A stretch of 8,605 nucleotides of DNA, taken from the IMG/VR virus record IMGVR_UViG_2695420564_000006. One strand, 5' to 3'. This document shows, piece after piece, positions 1 through 8,605 of the stretch. This DNA is from a virus. Lineage: Duplodnaviria; Heunggongvirae; Uroviricota; Caudoviricetes. The position numbers and the translations under genes are program-made. The first letter of the stretch is position 1. Each line of letters begins with the position of its first letter. Below the pieces are notes generated by a model. The model made no database searches. It saw only the letters and a list, made by a program, of their open reading frames with translations, and was not told the origin of the DNA.

Positions 1-436
1 GCTTGCTGCTTTTCCGTAAGCACCGCTCACGGCGCGCCAGAAAATTGTTTCGTTCTGACTGGGAGTGGCTTTCACGGAATGCCGCCATCCACACGGTTGC
101 AGCACGACGGTATAAGCCCCTGGACTCCAGTTCTTCAGCCTGGCGGGTCAGGCACAAAATTACCCGGGGATCGTTAGTGCCGACATAGAAATTGCGCACA
201 GGTCTGGTTTCACGAACTGGTTGTGGTTCCGGCTCCTGCGCTCTCTCAGTCAGGCGCGGGAAATGTCTACGTGTATCTCCTTCACAACGGTGAGCCACAC
301 GCCCACTCTGACGTAACTTGCTTGCTGACTGCAGAACGCGCTGCCGTGAGTAACCTGCAAAAGCATCCGCAATGTCTCCGGAAGTACACCCCGGATGGGC
401 TTCAATGAATTTCTGAACGTCATTCAAAAGACTCAT
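1..436 (-). CDS. PerC-family-like transcriptional regulator with an N-terminal extension; 5' complete, 3' end runs off the window start
   Basis: ATG at 434-436 (minus), 2 nt after the stop of the upstream gene, preceded by a G-rich SD-like stretch. Open frame of 145 codons to position 2 with no stop; absent from the ORF track because it leaves the window. Translation ends ...AEELESRGLYRRAATVWMAAFRESHSQSERNNFLARRERCLRKSSK, matching the PerC/Pch pattern (LE-x-x-GL-aromatic-RRAA-x-x-W ... RR-x-x-CL) as I recall it. Confidence 0.45.
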   Translation of the reverse strand, partial: MSLLNDVQKFIEAHPGCTSGDIADAFAGYSRQRVLQSASKLRQSGRVAHRCEGDTRRHFPRLTERAQEPEPQPVRETRPVRNFYVGTNDPRVILCLTRQAEELESRGLYRRAATVWMAAFRESHSQSERNNFLARRERCLRKSSK

Positions 437-438
437 AA

Positions 439-1257
439 TCACCCCCTGAATCCTGCCGGGATCTGGCTGTAGTCCACATTGTCGTAACTGGCTTTGAAGT
501 ACGGGTCCTCGCGTCTGGCTGCAGATACTGCAGGAACTTCCCAGGATTCTTCGAAATGACGATCCGGACCAAAGAACGTGACAGCCTGTTTCACAAATTG
601 TGTGCCGCTGTTACCCATCGCAGATACCCAGCCCGCGTAGCGTTTCACACCTTCCAGCAAGGTTTCGGGGTTTACCCCCTCATTCAAACGGGCTTTCCAG
701 GCTTTGAAGGCTGCAGATTTTGAATTGCCACCAGCACGTTTGGGATAGGCCAGCCATGCCTGCTCAAACTCCGGAGAGTATTCCGGTCGGTTTGAACGAA
801 CTCGCACAGACTCATCAGCAGATGCACCAACAGCTATTGGTTCATTGACTGGTTCTTTGACTGGTTCAAAAGAGTGACTGGTTCTGGGTGAATCTCCTGC
901 ACTACCCCCTGGTGCAACTCCTGCACTATCTGGTGAATTTGCTGCACCAGATAGTGAATTATTTGCACTACCCCCTAGTGAATCTCCTGCACCATCAAGA
1001 TGAAGGAGATAGATATTACTTGAGTTACCTTTTTCACCTTTCCGGGTGACTTTTTTTACCAGCCCGGACTCACAAAGGGCCGCAATATGATTCATCACAG
1101 AACGTTTGCTAATCTCGCACTGGTCAGCAATATGCTGGTAGCTGGGCCAGCACTCACTCTGATCGCTGGCATTATCAGCCAGCTTGATCAGAACCAGTTT
1201 TCGCAATGGATTACCCACTCGAATTTTCATCGCTTTAACCATCAGCTCCATACTCAT
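439..1257 (-). CDS. phage-type replication initiation protein: N-terminal helix-turn-helix domain, repetitive Gly/Ser/Ala/Pro linker, C-terminal domain
   Basis: 272-aa ORF in the track. N-terminal region has an HTH-like segment (SYQHIADQCEISKRSVMNHIAALCESGLV). Central low-complexity linker (GAGDSLGGSANNSLSGAANSPDSAGVAPGGSAGDSP, EPVKEPVNEP) is encoded by tandem DNA repeats. Start overlaps the stop of the upstream ORF (ATGA at 1254-1257). Sits between Rha-like and PerC-like prophage genes. Confidence 0.6.
   Translation of the reverse strand: MSMELMVKAMKIRVGNPLRKLVLIKLADNASDQSECWPSYQHIADQCEISKRSVMNHIAALCESGLVKKVTRKGEKGNSSNIYLLHLDGAGDSLGGSANNSLSGAANSPDSAGVAPGGSAGDSPRTSHSFEPVKEPVNEPIAVGASADESVRVRSNRPEYSPEFEQAWLAYPKRAGGNSKSAAFKAWKARLNEGVNPETLLEGVKRYAGWVSAMGNSGTQFVKQAVTFFGPDRHFEESWEVPAVSAARREDPYFKASYDNVDYSQIPAGFRG
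887..994. repeat. iteron-like array: five imperfect ~18-bp direct repeats at 21-24 bp spacing (candidate replication origin inside the initiator gene)
   Basis: Units at 887-904 ggtgaatctcctgcacta, 911-928 ggtgcaactcctgcacta, 932-949 ggtgaatttgctgcacca, 953-970 agtgaattatttgcacta, 977-994 agtgaatctcctgcacca. Each is bounded by GGTG...CACC-type inverted ends. Three copies of (t)tgactggttc lie just upstream at 845-884, and a moderately AT-rich stretch follows at 996-1060. Confidence 0.5.
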
Positions 1258-1478
1258 GCTGCACCTCCGAGATGCTTCATGTTTTTTCCGGAGCGAAAGG
1301 CTATAAGCGGCATACTGACGCGGTAATTACGGCCCAGCGGTTCACAAATCACCTTCTGACATTCACGGTCAACCAGGCTAACACGTAGAACATGCCCTGC
1401 AGGCGTGGTGTACCACTGACCCGGACGAGGACAACAGAAAGTATGATTGGTAAACCGTTTGAAAATATTCCGGATCAT
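1254..1478 (-). CDS. small hypothetical prophage protein (74 aa), Cys-containing, possibly metal-binding
   Basis: ORF in the track. Start overlaps the stop of the upstream Rha-like ORF (ATGA at 1475-1478) and its stop overlaps the start of the replication gene. Cys residues at 15, 16, 40 and 45 (CC-x23-C-x4-C). No family recognised. Confidence 0.35.
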   Translation of the reverse strand: MIRNIFKRFTNHTFCCPRPGQWYTTPAGHVLRVSLVDRECQKVICEPLGRNYRVSMPLIAFRSGKNMKHLGGAA

Positions 1479-1855
1479 TTGCGCCCCCTTACCTCTGAAG
1501 GGTTCAGCGACAAATTTATGAGGCAGGCCAGTGCCGAAGCATCATTAATATAGTCATACAAGCTAACAGCCAGCGGAGATTCGGCTTTTGCCAACATAGG
1601 ATAAAGCTGCTGCAGCCAGACCTGATGAATTGATGAAATGTAGGAATAGAGAACGCTGGCGTTATGTGCAACGTCGCTCAGTACAGAGGGATTTGAAAGC
1701 TGTTTCTCCATCTGGTTAAAGGCATTTATGTATGCCTCTTTGAACCGGGCAGCACGTTTACCAGTGAAGCCCATAGCAAGGAACGCGAAGCCATCGCGGG
1801 TGATTTGATAGCAAGGTAGTTTGCGGCCTGTGCAATCGGTGTAATCACTNANNGA
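1475..1855 (-). CDS. Rha-family phage regulatory protein, C-terminal part only (5' end lost at the N-run 1850-1853)
   Basis: Translation contains [51 protein letters not shown], matching the conserved C-terminal end of the Phage_pRha domain as I recall it. The expected N-terminal part of the domain is absent and the in-frame upstream sequence beyond the N-run is unrelated. The track ORF 1475-1909 uses a TTG in that unrelated sequence. Confidence 0.5.
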
Positions 1856-1973
1856 AGTTATCGACAACGACCGCGAAGACTGGAAGCGTATCTCGGCATC
1901 AATGCGCAAACAGCCTGATGCCCTTCGCTACAACCGCCAGACTATTTTTGGCCTTGTCCGTAAACGTCCGATC

Positions 1974-2378
1974 ACCCGCCGCGCATTGGGCAAAAAAGCG
2001 TGGCCCGGCGTGTGGACCAACTCGGTTTGCGGCCACCCACAGCAAGGAGAAAGTAATGAAGAGGCAGTGATCCGCCGTTGCCGCTTTGAACTGGGCGTGG
2101 AAATAACGCCCCCCGAACCGATCTATCCAGACTTCTACTATCGCGCCACCGACCCGAATGGCATTGTCGAAAATGAAGTCTGTCCGGTATTTGCCGCGCG
2201 AATTACCAGCGCGTTACAGCCCAACAATGATGAAGTAATGGATTATCAGTGGTGTGATTTAGCGCAGGTATTACGCGGTATCGATGCCACGCCGTGGGCA
2301 TTCAGCCCATGGATGGTAATGCAAGCGACAAATAGCGAAGCCAAAAAACGGTTGTCTGCATTTGCCCAGCGTAAATAA
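1974..2378 (+). CDS. idi: isopentenyl-diphosphate delta-isomerase (type 1, Nudix fold), C-terminal ~134 codons; 5' part not idi-like
   Basis: Translation [48 protein letters not shown]...[30 protein letters not shown] matches enterobacterial Idi. Convergent with lysS as in E. coli. The 38 in-frame codons upstream (1861-1973) do not resemble the Idi N-terminus. Confidence 0.8.
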
Positions 2379-2402
2379 AAAACCCCGACGATTGCCGGGG
2401 TT
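2379..2402. terminator. putative bidirectional intrinsic terminator between convergent idi and lysS
   Basis: GC-rich hairpin ccccg-acgattgc-cgggg (2383-2400), flanked by an A-run on the plus strand (2373-2382), which is a T-run for the minus-strand lysS transcript. Confidence 0.4.
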
Positions 2403-2420
2403 GTAAGCGTAGCGTAATGC

Positions 2421-3263
2421 TTATTTTACCGGACGCATCGCCGGGAACAGAATCACGTCGCGGATGGTGTGGCTGTTGGTGAACAGCATCACCATACGAT
2501 CGATACCAATCCCCAGACCCGCAGTTGGCGGTAAGCCATGTTCCAGCGCGGTGACGTAATCTTCGTCGTAGAACATCGCTTCGTCGTCGCCCGCCTCTTT
2601 CGCGGCAACCTGATCCTGGAAACGTTGCGCCTGATCTTCTGCGTCGTTCAGCTCGCTAAAGCCGTTACCGATTTCACGACCACCGATGAAGAATTCAAAG
2701 CGGTCAGTGATTTCCGGGTTAACGTCGTTACGGCGTGCCAGCGGAGAAACTTCTGCCGGATATTCAGTAATGAAGGTCGGCTGAATCAAATGTGCTTCTG
2801 CCACTTCTTCGAAGATCTCAGTTACGATACGGCCCAGTCCCCAGCTCTTCTCAACGTGAATGCCAATAGATTCAGCAATCGCTTTCGCAGAGTCGAAGTT
2901 ATCCAGATCCGCCATCTCAGTTTCCGGGCGGTATTTTTTGATCGCTTCACGCATGGTCAGTTTTTCAAACGGCTTACCGAAGTCCAGCGTCACGTCGCCG
3001 TAGGTTACTTCCGTCTTACCGAGAATATCCTGTGCCAGAGTACGGAACAGCGATTCGGTCAGCTCGATCAGATCTTTGTAATCTGCGTAAGCCATGTAGA
3101 GTTCCATCATAGTGAACTCTGGGTTATGGCGTACGGAGATACCTTCGTTACGGAAGTTACGGTTGATTTCGAACACACGCTCGAAGCCGCCAACCACCAG
3201 ACGCTTGAGGTACAGTTCCGGCGCGATACGCAGGTACATGTCGAGATCCAGCGCGTTATNNAN
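2421..3263 (-). CDS. lysS: lysyl-tRNA synthetase, C-terminal catalytic (class II) domain, ~280 codons; N-terminal anticodon-binding domain missing
   Basis: Translation ...[51 protein letters not shown]...[32 protein letters not shown] matches LysS. The frame hits a stop two codons beyond the N-run at 3260-3263, so the gene is truncated there. Confidence 0.9.
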
Positions 3264-3362
3264 GTTTCATGCCCGCAGCCAGGTGTTGTTACCCGATGAC
3301 GATGGTAGATTGCAGCCATTGACGCATCCACAGGGGATGACGCCATGGGACGAGGCTATCGC

Positions 3363-4604
3363 CCACNGGCANNNNTGAGCGAAACCCTGTTCAAACCCCG
3401 CTTTAAACATCCTGAAACGTCGACGCTAGTCCGCCGCTTTAATCACGGCGCGCAATCGCCTGTGCAGTCGGCCCTTGATGGCAAAACCATTCCCCATTGG
3501 TATCGCATGATTAACCGTTTGATGTGGATCTGGCGCGGCGTTGACCCGCGTGAAATCCTCGGCGTCCAGGCGCGTATTGTGATGAGCGATGCCGAACGCA
3601 CCGACGATGATTTATACGATACAGTAATTGGCTACCGCGGCGGCAACTGGATTTATGAGTGGGCTACCCAGGCGATGGAATGGCAGCAGAAAGCTTGTGC
3701 GGAAGAAGATCCGCAAGTCAGCGGGCGTCACTGGTTGCATGCAGCCACACTGTATAACATCGCCGCCTATCCGCATCTGAAAGGGGACGATCTGGCGGAG
3801 CAAGCCCAGGCGTTGTCAAACCGCGCTTATGAAGAGGCAGCGCAACGTCTGCCAGGAAGTATGCGGCAAATGGAGTTCACTGTTCCAGGCGGTGCGCCCA
3901 TCACTGGTTTTTTGCATATGCCAAAAGGCGATGGGCCATTCCCGACAGTATTAATGTGTGGCGGGCTGGATGCGATGCAAACAGATTATTACTCCCTTTA
4001 TGAGCGCTATTTTGCACCGCGCGGCATTGCAATGTTGACTATTGATATGCCTTCGGTCGGTTTCTCTTCAAAATGGAAGCTCACCCAGGACTCCAGTCTT
4101 CTGCATCAGCATGTTTTAAAGGCGTTGCCGAATGTGCCGTGGGTAGATCACACGCGCGTCGTGGCCTTTGGTTTCCGTTTTGGCGCTAACGTTGCTGTGC
4201 GTCTGGCTTACCTTGAATCACCGCGTTTGAAAGCGGTGGCTTGCCTTGGTCCGGTAGTTCATACCTTGTTAAGTGACTTTCAGTGCCAGCAACAGGTGCC
4301 GGAAATGTACCTTGACGTTCTGGCGAGTCGTTTAGGGATGCACGATGCTTCAGACGACGCTTTGCGCGTAGAGCTGAACCGCTATTCGTTAAAAGTGCAA
4401 GGGTTGCTGGGGCGTCGCTGTCCAACGCCAATGTTATCAGGTTACTGGAAGAACGATCCTTTTAGCCCGGAAGAGGACTCGCGGTTAATCGCTTCGTCAT
4501 CTGCTGACGGTAAATTGTTAGAGATTCCGTTCAATCCGGTGTATCGGAATTTTGACAAAGCGCTTCAGGAAATCACCAACTGGATCGAAAAACGATTGTG
4601 TTAA
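3363..4604 (+). CDS. frsA: fermentation/respiration switch protein FrsA (alpha/beta hydrolase); native ATG absent
   Basis: Translation from codon 2, (T)[30 protein letters not shown]...NWIEKRLC, matches FrsA over its full length. N's at 3367 and 3372-3375 fall in codons 2-5. The bases where the ATG should be (3360-3362) read cgc. An in-frame ATG at 3345 lies in unrelated upstream sequence. Confidence 0.9.
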
Positions 4605-5063
<459 letters not shown>

Positions 5064-5073
5064 CTGACATGTA

Positions 5074-5103
5074 CCGGGTTAGATGCTCGTACATCTAACC
5101 CGG
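5074..5103. terminator. perfect 12-bp-stem hairpin downstream of crl (possible terminator or RNA structure)
   Basis: ccgggttagatg (5074-5085), loop ctcgta, catctaacccgg (5092-5103), exact reverse complements. No immediate U-run; a T-run follows at 5116-5121. Confidence 0.45.
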
Positions 5104-5121
5104 CCTGGAATATTAGTTTTT

Positions 5122-5155
5122 GTAGGCCGGATAAGGCGTTCTCGTTGCATCCGGC
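5122..5155. repeat. REP (repetitive extragenic palindromic) element
   Basis: The reverse complement gccggatgcaacgagaacgccttatccggcctac fits the E. coli REP consensus (GCCGGATGCGGCG...CGCCTTATCCGGCCTAC). Lies in the crl-phoE intergenic space. Confidence 0.7.
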
Positions 5156-5163
5156 AATATTCG

Positions 5164-5976
5164 TTAAAATTGATATGTCATTCCAACCGCGACAATATCA
5201 TCATTATTAATATTCAACTTGTTATTGCTATCCAGTTGGTTGATTTTATAATCAACAAACGCTGACATATTTTTGTTGAAAAAATATGTTGCACTGACAT
5301 CAATATAATTGACCAGATCCTCATCACCGATGCCTTCAATATCTTTTCCTTTTGATAATACATAACCTAACGATGGACGCAGACCAAAATCAAATTGATA
5401 TTGCGCGACGGCTTCAAAATTTTGTGTTTTATTAGCAAAACCGCCAGAAATTGGCGTCATGTTACGTGTTTCAGAATAAAAAGTTGCCAGGTAAATATCG
5501 TTGGCGTCATATTTCAGGCCTGTTGCCCATGCTTCTGCGCGCTTGCCTGTACCACGGCTTTGCAGGTTTTGCTCATTGGTGCGGTCAGAATTAGTATAGG
5601 CTCCGCTGATGGCAAAATCGCTGCCGCCAAAGTCATAACTCAGTGAAGTACCGAATCCATCACCGTTTTGCTTTTTCACATCGCGATTTTCGTTTTTTCC
5701 TTGATATTGCAGGGTTAAGTTCAGGCCATCTACAATGCCGAAGAAGTCGGTATTACGATAAGTTGCCAGTCCGCTGGCGCGCTTGGTCATAAAGTTGTCG
5801 GTTTGTGCGGAGGAATCGCCACCAAATTCCGGGAACATATCGGTCCAGGCTTCTACGTCATATAACGCGCCCAGGTTACGACCATAATCAAAAGAACCCA
5901 AATCTTTATATTTCAATCCGGCAAACGCGAGGTGCGTTTTTTGCTGTGTGGTATCGCTTTCAGCTTTATTCCCGGC
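5164..5976 (-). CDS. phoE: outer-membrane phosphoporin PhoE, C-terminal ~270 codons; N-terminal ~90 codons including signal peptide missing
   Basis: Translation [53 protein letters not shown]...VAVGMTYQF, with the porin C-terminal F, matches PhoE. The frame breaks at the N-run 5977-5983 and sequence beyond is unrelated. The track start at 5916 is a TTG inside the gene. Confidence 0.9.
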
Positions 5977-6027
5977 NNNCNGNGGCGATGAGTACCGCTA
6001 ACAACAATGTTGGCGGCGCTGCGCCGG

Positions 6028-6111
6028 GGAACCTGCAAGATCAAAGCAATCGGCGGCTTCGCAGATCCCCTTTATAAACATCAGGCAGATTACTAACATC
6101 CATTTTTTCAT
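6028..6111 (-). CDS. N-terminal fragment (~27 codons) of an F-like plasmid lytic transglycosylase (orf169 / gene 19 family), truncated
   Basis: ATG at 6109-6111 (minus) with a GGTGGA SD-like motif 5 nt upstream. [27 protein letters not shown] matches the signal-peptide N-terminus of the F orf169 / R1 P19 family as I recall it. Similarity stops after ~27 codons and the frame ends 10 codons later. Confidence 0.45.
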
Positions 6112-6119
6112 TTTTCCAC

Positions 6120-6217
6120 CTCTGGTGACTTTATCCGTAAATAATTTAACCCACTCCACAAAAAGGCTCAACAGGTTGGTGGTTCTCACAACCAAAAGCG
6201 GCANANNCNNCGCNNNG
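6120..6217. other. F-like plasmid oriT-like fragment (nic-proximal region), partly N-masked
   Basis: ggtggttctcacaaccaaaagcggca-N-a-NN-c-NN-cgc-NNN resembles the F oriT segment ggtggttctcaccaccaaaagcaccacaccccacgc (reverse complement of the nic-site strand). It is immediately upstream of the orf169-like start, as on F-like plasmids. Confidence 0.4.
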
Positions 6218-6218
6218 G

Positions 6219-6751
6219 GGGGATAAAACCACATTTTGGCAAGCTAACGTCAGGGCCACGAACATGCTGGCACAGACGGCAGGCAGGTTGTGTATTCCCC
6301 GGTTTATCCATATCTCCACGCCCGCGGTGTATTTTGATTTTCAGCATCATTATGACCTGCAAGAAACGTATCTTGCCCGGGCATTCTCCAGCTATTACGC
6401 CAGCAGCAAATACGCTGCTGAGCAGGCTATTGCCGGGGCGGTATCTCAATATCCGACCACGACGTTTATTCTTTTGCGTCCCCGTGGTTTGTTTGGCCCC
6501 CATGACCAGGTAATTGTTCCTCGTCTGATGCGGCAGCTGCAACAAGGCGGCGGCCTTCTACGTTTACCGCGCGGTGGTGAAGCGTTATTGGATCTCACGT
6601 TCGTGCAAAATGTGGTGTATGCCATGCAACTGGCAACGCAAGTTGAAGGATTACGCTCGGGCAGTATTTACAACATCAGCAATCATCAGCCGCAGCCGTT
6701 ATCTGTGATGCTTGACGCCTTGCTGCGCCAGCAACTGGGCTTGAGTTACCA
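6219..6751 (+). CDS. NAD-dependent epimerase/dehydratase (extended SDR) family protein, YbjS-like, internal-to-C-terminal fragment
   Basis: In-frame translation from 6219, ...FWQANVRATNMLAQTAGRLCIPRFIHISTPAVYFDFQHHYDLQETYLARAFSSYYASSKYAAEQ..., carries the SDR catalytic YxxxK (YASSK) and resembles E. coli YbjS-type proteins. The Rossmann N-terminus is absent and the C-terminus changes character after the N at 6752. Confidence 0.5.
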
Positions 6752-6889
6752 NAAGGCAACTCTGAAAAAAGCGAGGAAATACTGCTACCATCAGGAAGAT
6801 GAGTCACAATCAACGGAAGAACTTCTACAACCATAATATAAATTGCAGAGAACATTACAAACTTAATGAGTGCAGTACGAAAAATAAAA

Positions 6890-7630
6890 CCANNACTGGC
6901 CCGCGCGGTGGTTGCCGGGTTAGCGCAAGCAGATACGCTGAGGATGCGTTTTACGGAAGATAACGGCGAAGTCTGGCAATGGGTCGATGATGCGCTGACG
7001 TTCGAACAGCCAGAAATTATTGACCTGCGTACCAACATTGATCCGCACGGTACTGCGCGGGCATTAATGCAGGCGGATTTACAACAAAACCTGCGTATCG
7101 ATAGTGGTAATCCGCTTGTTTTTCATAAGATTATACAGGTGGAGGATAATCGTTGGTACTGGTATCAACGTTATCACCATTTGCTGGTCGATGGCTTCAG
7201 TTTCCCGGCCATTACCCGCCAGATAGCCAACATTTATTGTGCCTGGCTGCGTGGCGAACCTACGCCTGCGTCGCCGTTTACTTCTTTCACTGATGTAGTG
7301 GAAGAGTACCAGCAATATCGCGAAAGCGAAGCCTGGCAGCGTGATGCGGCTTTCTGGGCGGATCAACGTCGTCAACTACCGCCGCCAGCGTCACTTTCGC
7401 CTGCACCTTTACCGGGGCGCAGTGCCTCGGCAGATATTCTGCGCCTGAAACTGGAATTTACTGACGGGGAATTCCGCCAACTGGCAGCGCAACTTCCGAC
7501 CGTACAACGTACCGATTTAGCTCTCGCGCTGGCGGCATTGTGGCTGGGGCGATTGTGCAACCGCATGGACTATGCCGCCGGATTTATCTTTATGCGCCGT
7601 ATGGGCTCGGCGGCGTTGACGGCTACCGGA
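6890..7630 (+). CDS. entF: enterobactin non-ribosomal peptide synthetase EntF, N-terminal condensation-domain fragment (~247 codons)
   Basis: Translation P-x-LARAVVAGLAQADTLRMRFTEDNGEVWQWVDDALTFEQPEIIDLRTNIDPHGTA...YWYQRYHHLLVDGFSFPAIT...LCNRMDYAAGFIFMRRMGSAALTATG matches EntF residues ~30-275, including the HHxxxDG condensation motif (HHLLVDG). Flanked by unrelated sequence at both ends. Confidence 0.85.
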
Positions 7631-7631
7631 N

Positions 7632-8441
7632 GAGCTGCAATTGCCCACTTCAACTTATCGTTTTGCCGATAGCGAAAGTCTTTTCCGCGAGGCGGTTGCC
7701 GACATCGGCTATCCCTGCATTGTTAAACCGGTGATGAGTTCCTCTGGCAAGGGGCAGACATTTATTCGCTCTGCCGAACAGCTTAGCCAGGCATGGGAAT
7801 ACGCCCAGCAAGGCGGTCGCGCCGGAGCAGGTCGCGTGATTGTTGAAGGCGTGGTTAAGTTTGACTTCGAAATTACATTACTGACCGTCAGTGCCGCGGA
7901 TGGAGTCCATTTCTGTGCCCCCGTAGGCCATCGCCAGGAAGATGGCGACTACCGGGAATCATGGCAACCACAGCAAATGAGTCCGCTGGCCCTGGAACGC
8001 GCGCAGGAAATTGCCCGCAAAGTGGTACTGGCGCTGGGCGGTTATGGTCTGTTTGGCGTCGAGTTGTTTGTTTGTGGTGATGAGGTGATTTTCAGCGAAG
8101 TCTCCCCTCGCCCGCATGATACCGGGATGGTGACGTTAATTTCCCAGGATCTTTCGGAGTTTGCCCTGCACGTACGCGCTTTTCTCGGTCTTCCGGTTGG
8201 CGCTATTCGCCAGTATGGTCCGGCCGCTTCAGCCGTTATCCTGCCGCAACTGACCAGCCAGAACATCACGTTTGATAATGTGCAGAATGCCGTTGGCGCA
8301 GGTTTGCAGATTCGTTTATTTGGTAAGCCGGAAATTGATGGCAGCCGTCGTCTGGGGGTAGCGCTGGCGACCGCTGAGAGTGTTGATGAGGCCATTGAAC
8401 GTGCGAAGCTCGCCGCCGGACAGGTGAAAGTACAAGGTTAA
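7632..8441 (+). CDS. purT: formate-dependent phosphoribosylglycinamide formyltransferase (GAR transformylase 2, ATP-grasp), C-terminal ~268 codons
   Basis: Translation [51 protein letters not shown]...[14 protein letters not shown] matches PurT from about residue 124 to the end. The entF frame runs directly into it at 7630 with no intergenic space. Confidence 0.9.
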
Positions 8442-8464
8442 ACCCGGCAAAAAACGCGACAAAA

Positions 8465-8490
8465 ATGCCCGATTAACAATCGGGCATTTT
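8465..8490. terminator. bidirectional rho-independent terminator between convergent purT and eda
   Basis: Stem atgcccgatt (8465-8474), loop aac, aatcgggcat (8478-8487), followed by ttt and preceded by aaaaa, so it has a U-run on either strand. Confidence 0.6.
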
Positions 8491-8495
8491 GATTC

Positions 8496-8531
8496 TTACA
8501 GCTTCGCGCCTTCTACAGCTTCGCGCGCCAG
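8496..8531 (-). CDS. eda: last 11 codons plus stop of KDPG aldolase (Eda); rest of the gene absent
   Basis: Minus-strand translation LAREAVEGAKL-stop matches the Eda C-terminus as I recall it, and eda is the native convergent neighbour of purT. Upstream of the N-run 8532-8536 the frame no longer resembles Eda. Confidence 0.35.
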   Translation of the reverse strand: MAREAVEGAKL

Positions 8532-8605
8532 NNNANTATCAGCAGGAGCTGCTGGAAGGAAAACCAAAGCCCAACAACAGCGAACTGGTGGTACGCAACT
8601 GGTAT

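Follow-up and report, generated by a model that had tools for sequence, protein, structure and literature searches.

An IncF oriT arm among unlinked Escherichia albertii-like fragments in a draft contig

A plasmid transfer origin lying next to chromosomal genes may mark a mobilisable element, an Hfr-type integration of a conjugative plasmid, or an error of assembly, and a stretch of DNA in which the arm of an F-like oriT and the start of a lytic transglycosylase gene appear between chromosomal fragments raises the question which of these applies. The stretch analysed (the window) was identified by exact-protein look-up as the entire 8605-bp contig CCBU01000360.1 of assembly GCA_000940615.1, a small, late-numbered contig (no. 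360) of a draft assembly; a literature search for the assembly and WGS accessions returned no match. All three readings had been put forward in the original prediction for this locus, and only the assembly problem is supported, the window being a chain of 12 unlinked pieces (Table 1). Very probably, a fragment of an ordinary IncF plasmid of the R100/F type, about the size of a read, was strung into an artefactual contig with eleven further unlinked pieces from an E. albertii-like genome and its mobile elements.

Table 1. Coordinates of the pieces, junctions and oriT features in the window (strand and basis where given)
Feature	Position	Strand	Basis or remark
Prophage block (HTH / PerC / Rha)	1-1849		
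Prophage exonuclease	1854-1973		
idi-lysS	1974-3259		
kdpD	3264-3365		
frsA-crl-phoE, left neighbour block, phoE truncated at 5' end	3364-5976	+	
nfrA (bacteriophage N4 adsorption protein gene), 48-nt internal fragment	5984-6031	+	91.7% identity in all E. coli genomes
nfrA/plasmid blunt junction	6031	.	one base common to both sources, no N's; nfrA identity ends and plasmid identity starts
IncF plasmid	6031-6199		
geneX/orf169/P19 lytic transglycosylase, first 27 codons (signal-peptide region)	6031-6111	-	26/27 residues as in WP_000243715-type proteins
oriT arm 3' of nic on the T strand (-1 to -91)	6112-6202	-	alignment with F, R100, pETEC-2264
nic-homologous position	between 6203 and 6202	-	alignment and nic position in F/R100 (taken as established; PMC12117103)
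Overlay zone, plasmid to +14 past nic over epimerase start	6198-6216	.	8/8 N's are disagreements and 5/5 called bases agreements (6204-6216)
Accessory NAD-dependent epimerase/dehydratase, internal fragment truncated at both ends	6198-6751	+	E. albertii-like
Inovirus DUF2523 gene	6753-6892		
entF	6890-7630		
purT	7629-8531		
ybhR	8537-8605		

Identity and extent of the plasmid-derived sequence

Positions 5984-6203 were compared by megablast with the 72,556 plasmids of PLSDB, of which 3962 matched 6031-6199, the best with 98.8% identity over 169 nt (E 2e-79). Nearly all of the matching plasmids were conjugative and of the MOBF/IncF type, their hosts were Escherichia, Klebsiella, Salmonella and Shigella, and the matched region lay under an annotated 'transglycosylase SLT domain-containing protein' adjoining traM. 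Alignment with F (NC_002483), R100 (NC_002134) and the ETEC IncF plasmid pETEC-2264 (NZ_CP023351) resolved the piece into the 5' end of geneX/orf169 and the oriT arm up to nic, and the R100 type was nearest to it. At this E value the match stands far above chance; the plasmid-derived sequence is genuine and already known, and the identification as F-type oriT and transglycosylase was borne out by both the PLSDB match and the three-plasmid alignment. The same alignment confined the similarity to a short stretch of 169-186 nt with a stop at both ends, an outcome that had been named beforehand as one that would speak against the prediction. As to the span originally assigned to the feature (5984-6217), the plasmid match in it begins at 6031, and 5984-6031 belongs to chromosomal nfrA.

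R100, pETEC-2264 and F share with the window 167 of the 169 bases of 6031-6199, the order of geneX start, 91-nt spacer (counted from the transglycosylase ATG to nic) and nic, and the TraI helicase-mode site with its inverted repeat; their nic-proximal TraI site is compatible with the bases called within 6203-6216. Measured against a whole IncF plasmid, on the other hand, the window holds about 0.2%, without any tra genes. The arm that is present, 3' of nic on the T strand, is in conjugation the first DNA to enter the recipient. Two substitutions (6070 and 6190) do not occur in the best-matching PLSDB plasmids, the best matches reaching 167/169: that at 6070 changes Asn14 to Lys in the transglycosylase signal peptide, that at 6190 breaks one base pair of the inverted repeat beside nic, and both are probably read errors at 1x depth.

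The transglycosylase gene begins on the minus strand with an ATG at 6111-6109, and N14K is the sole residue difference in its 27-codon stub. Past codon 27 the frame enters antisense nfrA and continues for 10 unrelated residues to a stop at 5998. The SLT catalytic domain with the catalytic glutamate is absent, residues 1-27 only being present, and a family scan of the chimeric ORF gave no family match. A non-functional gene cut after about 27 codons had been expected, and exactly 27 codons were found to match the plasmid protein before the sequence changes. In RefSeq annotation the plasmid transglycosylase has 200 aa and starts from a GTG directly at nic (L001 1072-1674, L029 1057-1659, L031 166-768), so that the annotated CDS spans the entire leading arm of oriT; classically, Orf169 starts at an internal ATG 31 codons downstream of the RefSeq GTG, and the same ATG is found in the window.

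Composition of the contig and the rule at its junctions

Family scans, BLAST and tiling divided the contig among 12 separate sources, the pieces measuring 48-2613 nt. All genes of the window are fragments, each of different origin and each truncated at a junction, the truncations seen in family scans including idi, lysS, entF, purT and Rha. The chromosomal members map in E. coli K-12 at approximately 0.26, 0.59, 0.61, 1.93 and 3.03 Mb. They are about 89% identical to E. coli and much nearer to other genomes: frsA-crl-phoE shows 99.3% identity with a group of complete genomes that encode exactly the same Crl protein, and the epimerase piece had its best match, among 185,579 species representatives, in E. 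albertii NBRC 107761 (identity 98% for amino acids and 95.8% for nucleotides, each N being scored as a mismatch). On these identities the chromosomal pieces are Escherichia albertii-like. An Rfam scan of the whole window gave no match.

The window contains 32 N's, which stand in small interleaved clusters at nine places; the clusters at 5977-5983, where the phoE block joins nfrA, and at 6204-6216 bracket the region containing the oriT arm. For each of the nine N-bearing junctions, the best available native sequence was taken for the left and for the right side and compared with the window. All 32 N's fall on positions at which left and right disagree (chance 0.75^32 = 1e-4), and the called bases between them number 14, of which 10 are agreements (expected 25%, p = 3e-4); the other four are the base of the right-hand piece, three of them resting on an E. 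coli proxy for E. albertii. The rule is 'N or right-hand base' and not a pure strict consensus, and eight of the nine junctions that follow it are unrelated to oriT.

Neighbouring pieces map to unlinked loci, and the conflicts at their junctions encode both sources (32/32 N's), as in an assembly chimera. Mis-joined contigs of draft short-read assemblies, in which a scaffolder or gap-closer has combined low-coverage debris, are small and late-numbered, like CCBU01000360.1, and combine unlinked pieces with genes truncated at the junctions, as the window does; here, ambiguity characters occur solely at junctions and encode both sources, an overlay-with-N footprint that is known in this case from sequence alone. 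From this footprint we infer the kind of software step responsible. An automatic joining step (scaffolding, gap closing or contig merging) would have built the contig by overlaying the end of one piece on the start of the next over 1 to ~19 bases, and would have written N at conflicts and occasionally the base of the right-hand piece.

The junctions at 1973/1974 and 6031 differ from these nine in being blunt: they have no N, and at most one base is common to both sides. They may be ligation or template-switch chimeras or abutments with zero overlap. That the joins, at least both blunt ones including nfrA/plasmid at 6031, arose as physical chimeras when the library was prepared, through fragment ligation or template switching, is unlikely: a blunt end with 0-1 nt shared and without N's fits such an origin, as does the unit 5984-6216, which at 233 nt is about one read long, but the N-bearing junctions, where the consensus encodes both native continuations, would be left unexplained. 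Whether by library chimera or by zero-overlap computational abutment, the arrangement is non-genomic. A 44-mer over the nfrA/plasmid junction had no other occurrence in exact searches of the GTDB species-representative genomes and IMG/VR, and therefore no independent genome in these two collections carries this join.

Overlay of plasmid and epimerase sequence at nic

The N's between the plasmid piece and the epimerase gene (6204, 6206-7, 6209-10 and 6214-16) lie 5' of nic, at +2 to +14, and cover recognition bases of the TraI trans-esterase. Their place over the nic-proximal bases had been recognised correctly, but the range given for them (6205-6217) was not exact, and the masking to which they had been attributed is not their cause. 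Native plasmid sequence past 6199 and native E. albertii epimerase sequence upstream of 6217 were set in register with the window; at 6204-6216 the plasmid reads CACACTACGCAAA, the E. albertii chromosome AAGTCCTCGCCCT and the window NANNCNNCGCNNN, and the N's are the disagreements between plasmid and chromosome, by the same rule as at all nine N-bearing junctions. Chromosomal identity begins at 6198, and 6200-6201 are the chromosomal GG where the plasmid has AC; thus both sources are overlaid across 6198-6216. The R100-type nic sequence CACACTACGCAAA explains 13/13 positions at 6204-6216, whereas the F-type sequence CACCCCACGCAAA fits 12/13, with 6209 then agreeing with the chromosome; since the F type fits one position worse, the hidden plasmid read was most probably R100-type. 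The original prediction had suggested that the masked bases be resolved, and the overlay does decode them, as an R100-type nic sequence with a 13/13 fit, from which the underlying plasmid read would be reconstructed as ...GCACC/ACACACTACGCAAA (slash, nic).

Deliberate or quality-related masking of nic, whether by the submitter, by a database or through sequencing trouble at a structured or nicked site, has a probability close to nil. The N's do fall on TraI recognition bases 5' of nic, but they are interleaved with called bases in such a way that 8/8 are disagreements and 5/5 called bases agreements, the pattern recurs at eight other junctions, and the N's are already in the stored NCBI record, in which IUPAC codes, had there been any, would have given both bases directly, but which has N.

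The possibility that an F-like plasmid or a mobilisable element has truly integrated, either by an Hfr-type event or by relaxase catalysis at a nic-like chromosomal site, was considered at the same junction. Hfr integration of F leaves plasmid oriT beside the chromosome, as in the window, and conjugative relaxases are able to catalyse integration into nic-like targets; plasmid sequence gives way to chromosome a few bases from nic (6199-6203), and the chromosomal sequence at the switch matches the nic region at 9/19 bases. Hfr junctions, however, are formed when IS elements or Tn1000 recombine, and they leave the plasmid whole and contiguous, whereas in the window neither junction carries an IS element, there is no contiguous plasmid backbone and both flanks are unlinked scraps: only 169-186 nt of plasmid are present, and the other end meets 48 nt of nfrA and then a truncated phoE. 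Furthermore, the plasmid runs 14 nt beyond nic according to the 13/13 fit of the N pattern, so that the join is not at nic, and the crossover lies at -4/-5; the identical N rule operates at eight junctions without any connection to oriT, and the epimerase gene is intact in native genomes, running uninterrupted through the junction point in E. albertii NBRC 107761 and in E. coli. Integration is regarded as highly improbable, and the mobilisable-element and Hfr readings fell with the finding of a plasmid piece of 169-186 nt between an nfrA scrap and an epimerase fragment.

Even less probable is a record, in the plasmid/epimerase join, of strand transfer by TraI of the T-strand leading end to a nic-like chromosomal site. 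The comparison on which it would be based is GCGGCA/AAGTCCTCGC against GCACCA/CACACTACGC, and the event would have to have been caught in a rare molecule that the assembler then blended with free-plasmid reads. In vivo nicking at nic was also considered as the origin of the plasmid fragment end and rejected, as the N pattern is that of a plasmid read extending at least 14 nt past nic. That the plasmid piece ends within ~15 nt of nic is a coincidence for which the mis-joining reading accounts only in part, and it counts against that reading.

Transfer function and use of the record

For the placement of nic we used its position in F and R100, which we take to be established knowledge, together with PMC12117103. 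At this point the T strand of the window reads 5'-...TNT/GCCGC... and the native one ...TGT/GGTGC... (over a longer stretch, 5'-NNNGCGNNGNNTNT/GCCGCTTTTGGTTGTGAGAACCACC... in the window and TTTGCGTAGTGTGT/GGTGCTTTTGGTGGTGAGAACCACC in the native R100 type). The window departs from the nic consensus 5'-...GTGT/GGTGC...-3' in that 2/5 bases 3' of nic are chromosomal and most bases 5' of it are N; the underlying plasmid read probably had an intact R100-type nic site, and the record does not. The TraI helicase-mode site and inverted repeat (-1 to -27) are present at 6202-6176 with three mismatches to F/R100 (6190, 6200 and 6201), the positions at which the oriT arm deviates from all plasmids, chromosomal bases having been called at 6200-6201. 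The TraI trans-esterase site (~+1 to +15) is not preserved, as only 6/14 bases of 6203-6216 are called and these occur in an unrelated gene as well; after 6216 the epimerase gene takes over, and plasmid similarity is over by that position.

According to a study of the F relaxosome by cryo-EM and footprinting (PMC12117103), the TraI trans-esterase site (single-stranded DNA from -2 to +9, double-stranded DNA from +10 to +15) lies 5' of nic, as do IHFa, sbyC/sbyA and the sbm sites, and the TraI helicase-mode site alone lies 3' of it; the study also notes, as prior knowledge, that IHFa and sbyA are needed both for relaxosome formation and for transfer. This + side of oriT is absent from the window: with plasmid similarity gone by 6216, the IHF sites (IHFa and IHFb), the TraY sites sbyA/C and the TraM sites sbmA-C are all absent. 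In F, R100 and pETEC-2264, traM lies 322-324 bp from nic, and none of this interval is found in the window beyond the 14-nt hybrid; the adjacent traM-traJ-traY operon is missing as well, neither traM nor traJ being found by family scans, BLAST or tiling in the 8605 bp. Judged by the site requirements described for F (PMC12117103), the DNA as written should not be open to nicking or mobilisation by an F-like relaxosome. Neither an integrated nor a working transfer origin is present, because the contig is mis-stitched and the N's are an overlay of two unrelated sequences, and as a feature of a genome the 'oriT embedded between chromosomal fragments' is not real.

The value of the finding is mainly cautionary, in that a genuine and easily recognised oriT motif beside chromosomal genes can mimic a mobilisable island or an Hfr; here the arrangement is an artefact of stitching. 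Where pieces meet, scattered N's that alternate with called bases are a useful diagnostic of such joins, and junction N's can be decoded to recover hidden sequence, here an R100-type nic region. The plasmid read presumably came from a plasmid of the isolate or from a contaminant, and at most the piece suggests the presence of an IncF plasmid in the sequenced culture or in a contaminant of it. CCBU01000360.1 is unfit for inference of synteny, gene content or mobile elements, and its chimeric ORFs ('Idi' and 'FrsA' with foreign N-termini) pollute protein databases: the 158-aa 'Idi' (1902-2378) has its first ~23 residues from the prophage exonuclease piece, the 419-aa 'FrsA' (3345-4604) starts in the kdpD piece, and both proteins are held in public protein collections.

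Some of the pieces are of interest in themselves. The 140 nt at 6753-6892 are 100% identical to a DUF2523 gene beside a zonular-occludens-toxin-domain gene (filamentous, inovirus-type prophage), and this piece occurs in only 27/5426 complete E. coli genomes. The epimerase gene belongs to an accessory cluster adjoining narI that comprises a KAS-III-like 3-oxoacyl-ACP synthase, an NAD-epimerase, an MBL-fold hydrolase and an F390-synthetase-related protein (L002 259-3535; L009); its NAD-epimerase has weak OleD-like similarity. Of 5426 E. coli genomes, 674 have the cluster; it also occurs in E. albertii and has relatives in Leminorella and Kosakonia and even in Azonexus/Dechloromonas. Between crl and phoE, a 40-nt repeat at 5117-5156 recurs with 90-92% identity between genes at unrelated loci (L009 1591-1630, L035 2177-2216, L002 98-133), and it is probably a REP-type extragenic palindrome.
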